DNA of 64,000 bases from Escherichia coli (lineage in GTDB: Bacteria; Pseudomonadota; Gammaproteobacteria; Enterobacterales; Enterobacteriaceae). The stretch is from NCBI RefSeq assembly GCF_003334335.1, contig NZ_QOWQ01000018.1; one strand, 5' to 3'. How positions within the stretch are numbered: position 1 is the stretch's first letter; each line of letters opens with the position of its first letter. The notes beneath the pieces are model-generated. The model was not told the DNA's origin and searched no databases. It was given only the letters and a program-made list of their open reading frames with translations. The translations under genes were made by a program, and so were the position numbers. This document shows positions 50,704-52,660 of the stretch, piece by piece.

Positions 50704-52134
50704 TTACAATAACCATTCCACGGGCAATATCGACGCCAGTCTGACCATAACCCGCTTCCAGAAACTGGTGGCGGGTTCTTTTTTGAGAATAATCTCTTTC
50801 TTTGCATGACGATCAACCCAGTTGATCCGTCCCCACCTGTCCAGACGGAGCTGCCAGGCCGCATCATACTGGCTCTGAATAAAGCGTTTATCAATTAACT
50901 GTGCCAGCGTTTCGCTCTCTATCACGAAGCCCATTTCAGTATTGAGCAATGTTGAACGCGGATCGAAATTGAAAGAGCCGATAAACACCGTTTTACCATC
51001 GATGCTAAAGGTTTTAGCATGCAGGCTGGCTCCGGAATTACCGGTTATGCCGCGATCGTGTAACGTACTACTTTGTTCACGCGTCGGCTTGAGTTCATAT
51101 AATTCCACGCCATAGCGGAGCAATTTTTTGCGCCAGCGCGCGTATCCGGCATGGACGACAGCAACATCGTTAGCGGCAAGAGAATTGGTTAGGATCGCAA
51201 TCTTTACCCCTTTTCTCACCATCCGTAAGAGTTGCGCCACACCTGCGCGTGTCGGTACAAAATAGGAAGAGATAATATCGATGCGTTCACTGGGTGAGCC
51301 CATGATATCGAACAGGCGCTGCGGTAACAGTGAATGCCGTTTTGCCTTGCCCTCCCCTTTCGCCGGATCATCACTTAATAAACGTGTCTTCGCCCAGATA
51401 AGCGGCAATGTTCCATCAACCAGATGATTTATAAATGGACTGGATTCCATTTTGCGTAAATAACGATGCGTCATGGCATCGTTATGCCAGGAGGCGGGTA
51501 ACTCGATGCGATCCGCCATTTCACCCTCCGGGACATCCAGCACCTGCTGTAAGGGTGAAACCGATTTGCAATACCAGTAGCGGGCGAAATCATCGGCAAC
51601 GTCCTCTACCACGGGTCCTATTGCCATGACATCTAAATCCGAAAAAAGTGGCTCCTCCCCTGCTCCAAAATAGGCATCACCAATATTTCGTCCTCCCACC
51701 AGGGTCACCACGCCATCGACAGTGAAACTTTTATTGTGCATACGGCGATTAAGACGGGAAAAGTCGGTGATATAACCAAGCGGACGCAGCAAGCGAAACG
51801 AGAAAGGATTAAAAAGCCGGACTTCAATGCGTGGATGACTGTCAAGCAAGCGTAAAATGTCGTCAAGTCCGGGCGTATTGTTGTCGTCCAGCAACAAACG
51901 GACGCGAACGCCACGCTTTGCTGCGGCTAACAGGGCGGAAAACAGTAACCGACCCGACATATCGTCCTGCCAGATGTAATACTGAACATCGAGCGTATGC
52001 TCTGCCATTTCGGCCAGACGATACCGGGCGGCAAACGCATCCAGACTTTTCTCCAGAGGAAAAAGGCCACACTGACCGGGATGTTGCGAACACAGTGGCA
52101 GCACCGCGCTCGCCAGCCGGGGCAAATCATTCAT
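50704..52134 (-). CDS. clsC: Cardiolipin synthase C (YmdC), phospholipase D family
   Basis: ORF 50704..52194 with two HxK(x)4D motifs ([18 protein letters not shown]); start placed at ATG 52134, overlapping ymdB stop. Exact start uncertain. Confidence 0.88.
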
Positions 52135-52660
52135 CTCCTTGTTGGGTAAGGAGTCTTTCGTAGAGGTGGGCGTTTTCTTCATCATAACAGACAAAGTATA
52201 CCTGTTCGGGTAAAGCGTGACGGGTAATAAATTCTGAAACGGTTTTTACTGCGATTTCAGCCGCTGCCGCACGAGGGTAACCATAAACCCCAGTACTGAT
52301 TGCAGGAAAAGCCACTGACGTATAGCTGTTTGCCGCCACCAGTCGTAGGCTATTGAGATAGGCATCCTGCAAAAGCTGGTCTTCGTTTTGTTCACCACCA
52401 CGCCAGACTGGCCCGACGGTGTGCACTACGGCTTTAGCGGGAAGATCGCCTGCAAGCGTAATAACGGCATGCCCCGTAGGGCAATCGCCCTGCTGTTGCC
52501 TGACTTTTAAACAAGCATCCAGCAGGGCCGGACCCGCTGCGCGATGAATGGCCCCATCGACGCCGCCGCCTCCCATTAATGACGGATTAGCCGCATTCAC
52601 AATCACATCAACGGCCAGTTTGGTAATATCACCCTGCACAACATGAATACGCGTTTTCAT
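52127..52660 (-). CDS. ymdB: Macrodomain O-acetyl-ADP-ribose deacetylase
   Basis: 177 aa [43 protein letters not shown], macro domain. Confidence 0.95.

Follow-up and report, generated by a model that had tools for sequence, protein, structure and literature searches.

Comparative evidence suggests that translation of clsC in Escherichia coli may start inside the upstream gene ymdB

Introduction

Where does the translation of clsC begin in Escherichia coli? ClsC is one of the three cardiolipin synthases of this bacterium and makes cardiolipin from PE and PG (Tan, 2012, as described in papers citing it), and its gene is part of what the title of Kim & Kim (2017) calls the ymdAB-clsC operon. 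The question touches on the relation of ClsC to the neighboring gene: clsC clones that carry ymdB have long been observed to make more ClsC, and the title of Sawasato & Bogdanov (2024) states that the ymdB product is not required for the substrate specificity of ClsC. There is no intergenic initiation region for clsC, and every start signal lies inside the 3' end of ymdB. The resulting uncertainty about the start is genuine and does not stem from a misreading of the sequence. It is an already known and ordinary annotation conflict, between curated K-12 and PGAP, and has been flagged as inconclusive in the literature. The present analysis, which draws on annotation, published initiation profiling, local RNA signals and comparison across Enterobacterales, suggests that clsC translation starts about 60 bases inside ymdB.

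Results

The locus encodes ClsC

The window, that is, the whole 64,000-nucleotide stretch analysed (E. coli contig NZ_QOWQ01000018.1), carries the ymd, cls and csg genes on its minus strand within an opgC-clsC-ymdB-ymdA-csgC-csgA-csgB region, with opgC on the plus strand, convergent with the minus-strand genes around clsC (Table 1). The gene order in K-12 is the same (csgBAC-ymdA-ymdB-clsC-opgC), and the ymdB-clsC junction is 100% identical to that of K-12-type genomes. The translation contains two HKD motifs (HxKxxxxD), HNKSFTVD and HAKTFSID; its matches to the ClsA and ClsB NCBIfam models are sub-threshold, and clsC is the annotated name in 5,424 of 5,426 E. coli genomes. Thus, by identity and synteny with K-12 b1046, the gene is that of ClsC, the PLD-superfamily cardiolipin synthase C, and the names ymdB and clsC given by an earlier sequence-only reading of this DNA hold. 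The reading frame of clsC is +1 relative to ymdB, and an in-frame ATG from which this frame runs without a stop up to the conserved domain is present inside ymdB.

Table 1. Features of the ymdB-clsC junction (window positions).
Feature	Position	Strand	Remarks
ymdB CDS	52660..52127	-	177 aa; macro-domain O-acetyl-ADP-ribose deacetylase; stop TGA at 52129-52127
clsC longest ORF	52194..50704	-	496 aa from TTG 52194
TTG start candidate	52194 (52192..52194)	-	496 aa; first possible start; weak SD-like CAGG 7 nt upstream
ATG start candidate	52185	-	493 aa; PGAP start; 59-nt overlap with ymdB
ATG start candidate	52182	-	492 aa; site flagged by TetRP
Leu171 codon CTT of ymdB	52150-52148	-	precedes Thr ACC; clsC-frame TTA at 52149-52147
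Predicted 6-bp hairpin CUCCUU/AAGGAG	52135..52153	-	-6.2 kcal/mol; masks SD
Shine-Dalgarno AAGGAG	52140-52135	-	ymdB codons Gln174-Gly175-Asp176
ATG start candidate	52134 (52132..52134)	-	476 aa; 8-nt overlap; choice of the sequence-only reading
TTG start candidate	52125 (52123..52125)	-	473 aa; 53,665 Da; 1 nt past ymdB stop

Candidate starts and their annotation

Five candidate starts were found. The sequence-only reading had listed four of them, TTG 52194, ATG 52185, ATG 52182 and ATG 52134, each exactly placed, and had missed TTG 52125. The two upstream ATG codons form a pair (52180..52185, minus strand) made by the ymdB codons TAT-GAT-GAA, which encode Tyr159-Asp160-Glu161. The choice of the sequence-only reading was ATG 52134, for which the length of 476 aa and the overlap of 8 nt are correctly calculated. 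However, this codon is used as a start by neither curated K-12 nor PGAP, nor by any annotated genome record examined, and no annotation uses TTG 52194. The curated start of K-12 MG1655 (NC_000913.3, b1046, NP_415564.2; 1,422-nt CDS) is TTG 52125. Comparison with the curated ClsC length, the check that had been proposed for ATG 52134, thus yields 473 aa from another start and goes against that choice. PGAP places the RefSeq start at ATG 52185 in all seven E. coli records sampled (e.g., WP_001307714.1), and public databases carry 473-, 476-, 492- and 493-aa versions of exactly the same protein. The computed mass of the 473-aa form matches the 53,666 Da at which the lipid literature quotes ClsC; a search of the literature for experimental support of the curated TTG start found none.

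Published initiation profiling

Tetracycline profiling in vivo (TetRP), which examined in-frame NUG codons up to 60 nt away, reported for ymdC, the gene annotated here as clsC, an alternative ATG at -57 giving a protein that begins MKKTPTSTK (Nakahigashi, 2016; PMC4909307). This ATG corresponds to window position 52182. The read depths in three replicates were 0/30.1/16.1 at this ATG vs 0/0/5.7 at the annotated TTG, and the authors classified the site as "not conclusive (5' ORF)," since it is inside the coding region of the upstream gene; no N-terminal peptide was recorded for it, and no call was made at ATG 52134 (PMC4909307). INRI-seq, an in vitro method, used for this gene a synthetic RNA spanning -30 to +153 of the TTG at an estimated concentration of about 316 pM (PMC9825163). 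This RNA holds the hairpin, ATG 52134 and TTG 52125, and the upstream ATG codons lie outside it. The signal at the annotated TTG 52125 was 0 in 5/5 replicates, and no alternative site was called at ATG 52134 although it is on the RNA; the method detects 70% of annotated starts and misses 30% (PMC9825163). The in vivo Ribo-RET value at the annotated clsC start is also 0, and the TRAINSPOTTER N-terminomics data contain no ClsC entry. De novo initiation at TTG 52125 and ATG 52134 is, therefore, weak or blocked on naked RNA, and the INRI-seq silence is compatible with a start located further upstream as well as with a TTG that depends on the translation of ymdB.

Shine-Dalgarno sequences, hairpin and promoter

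The coding strand in the clsC frame reads ...GAC UCC UUA CCC AAC AAG GAG AUG AAU GAU UUG CCC... at the junction. The AAGGAG in this stretch is 9 nt upstream of TTG 52125 and has an anti-SD duplex energy of -8.5 kcal/mol, the strongest of all candidates, and it directly abuts ATG 52134. The usual spacing of a functional SD is at least about 4 nt, and the 0 nt of ATG 52134 falls below it. SD pairing is essentially none at ATG 52185 and ATG 52182 (-3.8 and -2.8 kcal/mol, respectively), and in E. coli K-12 the SD-like pairing of TTG 52194 is only -3.8 kcal/mol. It is the rare Gly codon GGA of E. coli ymdB that creates AAGGAG; the opposite arm of the predicted hairpin, CUCCUU (52153-52148), consists of the Leu170-Leu171 codons of ymdB, and the prediction is restricted to E. 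coli and its nearest clade. With TGA-T-TTG at the junction and the SD inside ymdB, the arrangement has the geometry of stop/start coupling. An Rfam search of the junction gave no known RNA element, and a consensus scan of the minus strand within ymdB gave no sigma-70-like promoter. As a separate matter, the LPLC in the E. coli N-terminus was considered as a cryptic lipoprotein signal and rejected, with Leu at -1, a hydrophobic stretch that is too short and a Cys that is not conserved.

Comparison across Enterobacterales

The genome scan covered 80 clsC loci, with ymdB directly upstream of clsC in 23 Enterobacteriaceae loci, including one (L010) in which only a 5'-truncated ymdB remnant remains, and in two Mixta loci. 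Alignments were anchored on the Leu of the conserved TRLGRAI motif. In 10/22 enterobacterial ymdB-clsC loci, the stretch that separates the 52185/52182-equivalent cluster from TRLGRAI contains no ATG, GTG or TTG; these loci include Lelliottia, Leclercia, Pseudescherichia, Enterobacter, Superficieibacter, Siccibacter and Kosakonia. A start at the position of TTG 52125 is absent in most genera, and an equivalent of ATG 52134 is missing from most other genera.

TGA-T-TTG together with AAGGAG is common to E. coli and an Escherichia clade of about 94% identity. E. albertii has TTA for TTG and AAGGCG for AAGGAG, and it keeps the upstream ATG pair, the open frame and the ATG equivalent to 52134. Four Citrobacter loci have TGA-T-ATG at the position of TTG 52125, and C. 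sedlakii has the TTG and lacks the 52134-equivalent ATG. C. werkmanii is the one lineage whose long frame contains stops. Its upstream ATG has also been lost, and the ymdB stop and clsC start overlap as ATGA, so that the junction start is the sole option there. ymdB ends earlier in Cedecea and Buttiauxella and is followed by 1 nt and then GTG or TTG; the geometry of a stop, 1 nt and a start has thus recurred independently in Citrobacter (ATG) and in these two genera.

Two further cases concern a degraded ymdB. In Phytobacter, ymdB ends about 115 nt earlier and a relic of a ymdB 3' end precedes clsC; stops interrupt the ymdB frame of this relic, and its ATG and clsC frame (MTIKMPEE...TRLERAV) have stayed intact. 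Intestinirhabdus retains only a ymdB remnant truncated at its 5' end, and the internal ATG is the sole start available to clsC. The Mixta genes do not overlap, and clsC there has a normal SD and an ATG 17 codons before the TRL motif. Overall, the N-terminal tail of ClsC ranges from about 5 to 25 residues among Enterobacterales and is short in the intact orthologues of C. werkmanii, Hafnia and Pluralibacter. Because the tail length varies in this way, the long and short forms of ClsC are probably both enzymatically competent. Among roughly 2,000 E. coli genomes with a variant junction, the six variant junctions sampled keep all starts, and no natural knock-out of either start was found in this sample. 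TTG 52194 is conserved and comes from the Phe-Val codons TTT-GTC of ymdB (TTT in 17/19); the SD-like pairing of its equivalents reaches -6.2 to -8.3 kcal/mol in several genera.

Stop avoidance in the long clsC frame

The long clsC frame is open in 21/22 loci, whereas the probability of openness per locus, estimated by codon-usage resampling, was 0.2-0.3 in most loci and higher in those without the Leu-Thr site. Stops in the +1 frame were about as frequent as expected in the non-overlapped part of ymdB. The Leu-Thr site is that of Leu171, at which CTG, CTA, TTA or TTG would each create a TGA or TAA stop in the clsC frame. CTT or CTC was present in all 14 de-replicated lineages with Leu-Thr, and in a control these two codons made up 0.37 of the Leu codons before an A-initial codon elsewhere in ymdB and clsC (n=201), resulting in a probability of 0.37^14 = 9e-7 for a site that was singled out after inspection and with lineage independence as an approximation. 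This approximation is fair because four-fold synonymous sites have reached saturation in comparisons of different genera (identity 0.2-0.55). Restricting the calculation to the six Escherichia/Citrobacter lineages gave 0.37^6 = 0.0026. Codons of the unsafe type occurred at the adjacent Leu170 in 8/13 lineages vs 0/13 at Leu171 (Fisher P=0.0016). The openness of the clsC frame is, as judged from these codon comparisons, non-random. Leu171 is upstream of both ATG 52134 and TTG 52125, and keeping it stop-free, therefore, implies entry from the 52194-52182 cluster.

The sequence of the extension itself is weakly constrained because a common E. coli variant (ACC to ACT), which is silent in ymdB, turns a Pro into Leu in the ClsC extension. 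Synonymous diversity was not significantly reduced in the overlap (ratio 0.70 vs 0.84, P=0.26), and amino-acid-level constraint on the overlapping extension was, accordingly, detected neither by this measure nor from the polymorphism.

Three other considerations were set aside. The hairpin as the cause of the codon restriction at Leu171 was rejected, since it occurs only in E. coli and its nearest clade and leaves the other genera unexplained. The conservation of the internal ATG was not taken as evidence, since the YmdB residues YDEEN give an in-frame ATG by chance with a probability of 0.64-0.94. The invariant TAT of Tyr159 (12/12) is weak as evidence, with control Tyr columns being equally invariant.

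Discussion

From the comparative pattern, we infer, with confidence a little better than even, that the ATG pair 52185/52182 is the ancestral and principal start of clsC in vivo. Several observations favor this pair: some lineages have no other start, stops are avoided in the long frame, both relic cases retain the ATG, E. albertii keeps the pair and not the TTG, TetRP hints at initiation there, and INRI-seq is silent at the two junction codons. The Ribo-RET value of 0 at the TTG and the PGAP call of 493 aa in 7/7 genomes point the same way. Initiation at the pair would produce a ClsC of 493 or 492 aa with an overlap of 56-59 nt, its first ~20 codons lying in the +1 frame across codons 159-177 of ymdB. 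TTG 52125, 1 nt past the end of ymdB, would be an innovation of the Escherichia/Citrobacter lineage. If used at all, it would probably be a secondary start for ribosomes that finish ymdB, because the predicted hairpin hides its SD and would be opened by the translation of ymdB. In these two genera, it may act as a secondary start coupled to termination. The link between clsC and ymdB translation within one operon, proposed by the sequence-only reading, is retained in this form, with the coupling mechanism being inferred. Several observations run against the ATG pair, namely the "not conclusive" classification by the TetRP authors, the near-absent SD, an ATG that follows almost automatically from YDEEN, the lack of a significant synonymous reduction and the Pro-to-Leu variant, as well as the strong SD and stop+1 geometry of TTG 52125, the short N-terminus of intact orthologues and an INRI-seq RNA that starts downstream of the upstream ATG codons.

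The main alternative is that E. coli relies solely or mainly on TTG 52125, at which ribosomes that terminate at the ymdB UGA and open the CUCCUU/AAGGAG hairpin would reinitiate, 2 nt downstream; the upstream open frame would then be a phylogenetic leftover. The curated K-12 annotation has this start, its SD is the strongest of the candidates, at 9 nt and -8.5 kcal/mol, and owes its existence to the rare GGA codon of E. coli. The same stop+1-nt+start geometry recurs in Citrobacter, Cedecea and Buttiauxella, with the equivalent position being the only possible start in C. werkmanii, and the predicted masking of the SD would account for the INRI-seq silence on naked RNA. However, most genera do without this start, E. 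albertii carries TTA in its place together with a weaker SD, and initiation profiling gave no signal in vitro or in Ribo-RET and only a TetRP depth of 5.7 in one of three replicates. Furthermore, the long frame is open in all six Escherichia/Citrobacter lineages with Leu-Thr (0.0026). We regard sole or main use of TTG 52125 as credible but less likely than use of the ATG pair.

The remaining alternatives are less probable still. ATG 52134 is an ATG near the ymdB stop, is kept in E. albertii, which has no TTG, and underlies the 476-aa version deposited on 72 contigs in GenBank submissions; nevertheless, with its 0-nt spacing from AAGGAG, its absence in C. sedlakii and most genera, the lack of a call by TetRP or INRI-seq and its disuse by curated K-12 and PGAP, it is the least supported candidate and very probably not a functional start, and we give a 476-aa ClsC with an 8-nt overlap very little credence. 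The start chosen by the sequence-only reading is probably misplaced, either 16-17 codons too far downstream or 3 codons too far upstream; that reading had allowed that the true start could differ by a few codons, which is correct in that the start may differ, but the best-supported alternative lies 16-17 codons upstream. TTG 52194, which would give 496 aa with a weak SD-like (G)AGCAGG 6-7 nt upstream, is conserved (TTT in 17/19) and has good SD-like pairing in several genera (-6.2 to -8.3 kcal/mol), but the pairing in E. coli K-12 is only -3.8 kcal/mol, TetRP flagged -57 and not -69, the codon is largely dictated by YmdB residues and no annotation has this start, which makes it a similarly improbable choice. 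Finally, we consider it very improbable that ribosomes shift into the +1 frame close to the end of ymdB and so produce a YmdB-ClsC fusion in the manner of prfB, with an SD-like element and a slow stop. The +1 frame of clsC and the SD-like GGAG/GAGG upstream of the ymdB stop in several genera without a proximal start would suit such a fusion, but the P-site codon before the stop is not a slippery one (with GAA-UGA in E. coli and GCA-UAA elsewhere, +1 re-pairing is impossible), the distance from the SD to the stop is unlike that of prfB, and clsC persists in Phytobacter, Mixta and Intestinirhabdus, where no intact ymdB lies in phase with it.

The location of the start signals may help to explain the effect of ymdB on ClsC. 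We tentatively consider, at less than even confidence, that this effect is exerted in cis and not by the activity of the YmdB protein, that constructs starting at the TTG yield a shortened and poorly initiated ClsC, and that two proteoforms may exist. A cis explanation is plausible because every candidate clsC initiation signal is inside ymdB; the cis elements would be the native clsC start, the first ~20 codons and/or a termination-coupled restart site. If both starts are used, E. coli would contain ClsC proteoforms of 55.9 and 53.7 kDa, and if the true start is inside ymdB, the 473-aa protein used in the field would lack the native N-terminus and initiation region. If this is true, the effect of ymdB on ClsC could be tested directly by a few point mutations that are silent in ymdB. 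Apart from this one open question, the ymdB effect on ClsC, the case amounts to a routine disagreement between annotations over a start site.

Compared with known systems, the curated K-12 ClsC (b1046, NP_415564.2, UniProt CLSC_ECOLI, 473 aa) shares the junction DNA and the gene order, and its start is TTG 52125 and not ATG 52134, which conflicts with the comparative evidence and PGAP. The PGAP/RefSeq ClsC (WP_001307714.1, 493 aa) shares the best-supported start, ATG 52185, and implies a 59-nt same-strand overlap and an SD-less start, with TetRP pointing one codon downstream, to 52182. Coupled stop/start junctions of the TGA-N-ATG or ATGA type occur in operons, for example between gene pairs of the trp operon. 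The clsC junction resembles them in the position of TTG 52125 1 nt past the ymdB stop, in an SD inside ymdB and in the predicted masking structure, and C. werkmanii has a true ATGA overlap; unlike them, its start is TTG instead of ATG and is missing in most genera, and coupling at the stop, therefore, cannot be the ancestral mechanism. TetRP reported 22 genes with two in-frame initiation sites, from which clsC differs in that it was listed as inconclusive by the authors (PMC4909307), and which it resembles in having two plausible in-frame starts 57-60 nt apart.

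Results and Discussion

The junction between ymdB and clsC was compared among the clsC loci of the genome scan, and clsC was found intact behind a decayed extra copy of the ymdB 3' end in one species and behind a truncated ymdB in another. The gap between the two genes was about 115 nt in Phytobacter massiliensis and held a decayed, Kosakonia/Enterobacter-like copy of the ymdB 3' end, the sole present role of which is to serve as the clsC 5' end; this arrangement looks like a ymdB/clsC overlap resolved through duplication or replacement. Only the last 65 or so codons of ymdB were left in Intestinirhabdus alba, with unrelated sequence upstream, and clsC was nevertheless intact; this species thus keeps clsC while having no functional ymdB.

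Features at the ymdB–clsC junction and in clsC homologues
Feature	Position	Strand	Sequence	Basis
ymdB codons Val154-Cys158, just upstream of the internal ATG	window 52186-52204	minus	GTATACTTTGTCTG	
Terminator-like element, reverse complement of the predicted SD hairpin	window 52135-52153	plus	CTCCTTGTTGGGTAAGGAG, then T-rich tail	consensus scan
Recurrent E. coli polymorphism	window 52145-52147		ACC to ACT	
Phytobacter massiliensis junction	L019:1300-1500			
Intestinirhabdus alba junction	L010:1150-1500			
Lipoprotein-type signal or hydrophobic anchor of distant ClsC homologues	about 20-45 codons before the TRLG motif, which is conserved (L042-L082)			strict lipobox regex and inspection

Citrobacter werkmanii (L006) was the only lineage in which the long frame was no longer open and the upstream ATG was lost as well, and a junction indel there altered the YmdB C-terminus to …GDNNGLI (stop) and yielded a canonical ATGA stop/start overlap between ymdB and clsC. 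Within E. coli, the recurrent polymorphism (strains GF66.2 and OkiPb01710) was silent for YmdB Thr172 but replaced a Pro with Leu in the putative extension of ClsC. In the E. coli genome search, 5 of the 5,424 junction matches sat on records classed as plasmids, and the genome FDAARGOS_1304 had a partial match at two places, annotated as 'macro domain-containing protein'.

The synonymous sites of Val154-Cys158 were unusually invariant among genera (TAC, 16/16; TTT, 17/19; GTA, 9/12), and the Glu162 codon past the ATG pair was GAA in 19/19, giving Lys (AAA) in the clsC frame. The invariant bases could represent an SD-independent, U/A-rich initiation context, but similar invariance was present in control columns. 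The terminator-like call over the SD hairpin is almost certainly incidental.

Most non-enterobacterial homologues, including those of Burkholderiales, Pseudomonas and Halomonas among other groups, carried a lipoprotein-type N-terminal signal (e.g. LLAGC|ALPSLEGR) or a hydrophobic anchor; 18 of 40 fitted a strict lipobox regex, and further cases were recognisable by eye. All Enterobacterales proteins were without either element, a difference that is relevant to the question of the membrane sidedness of ClsC.
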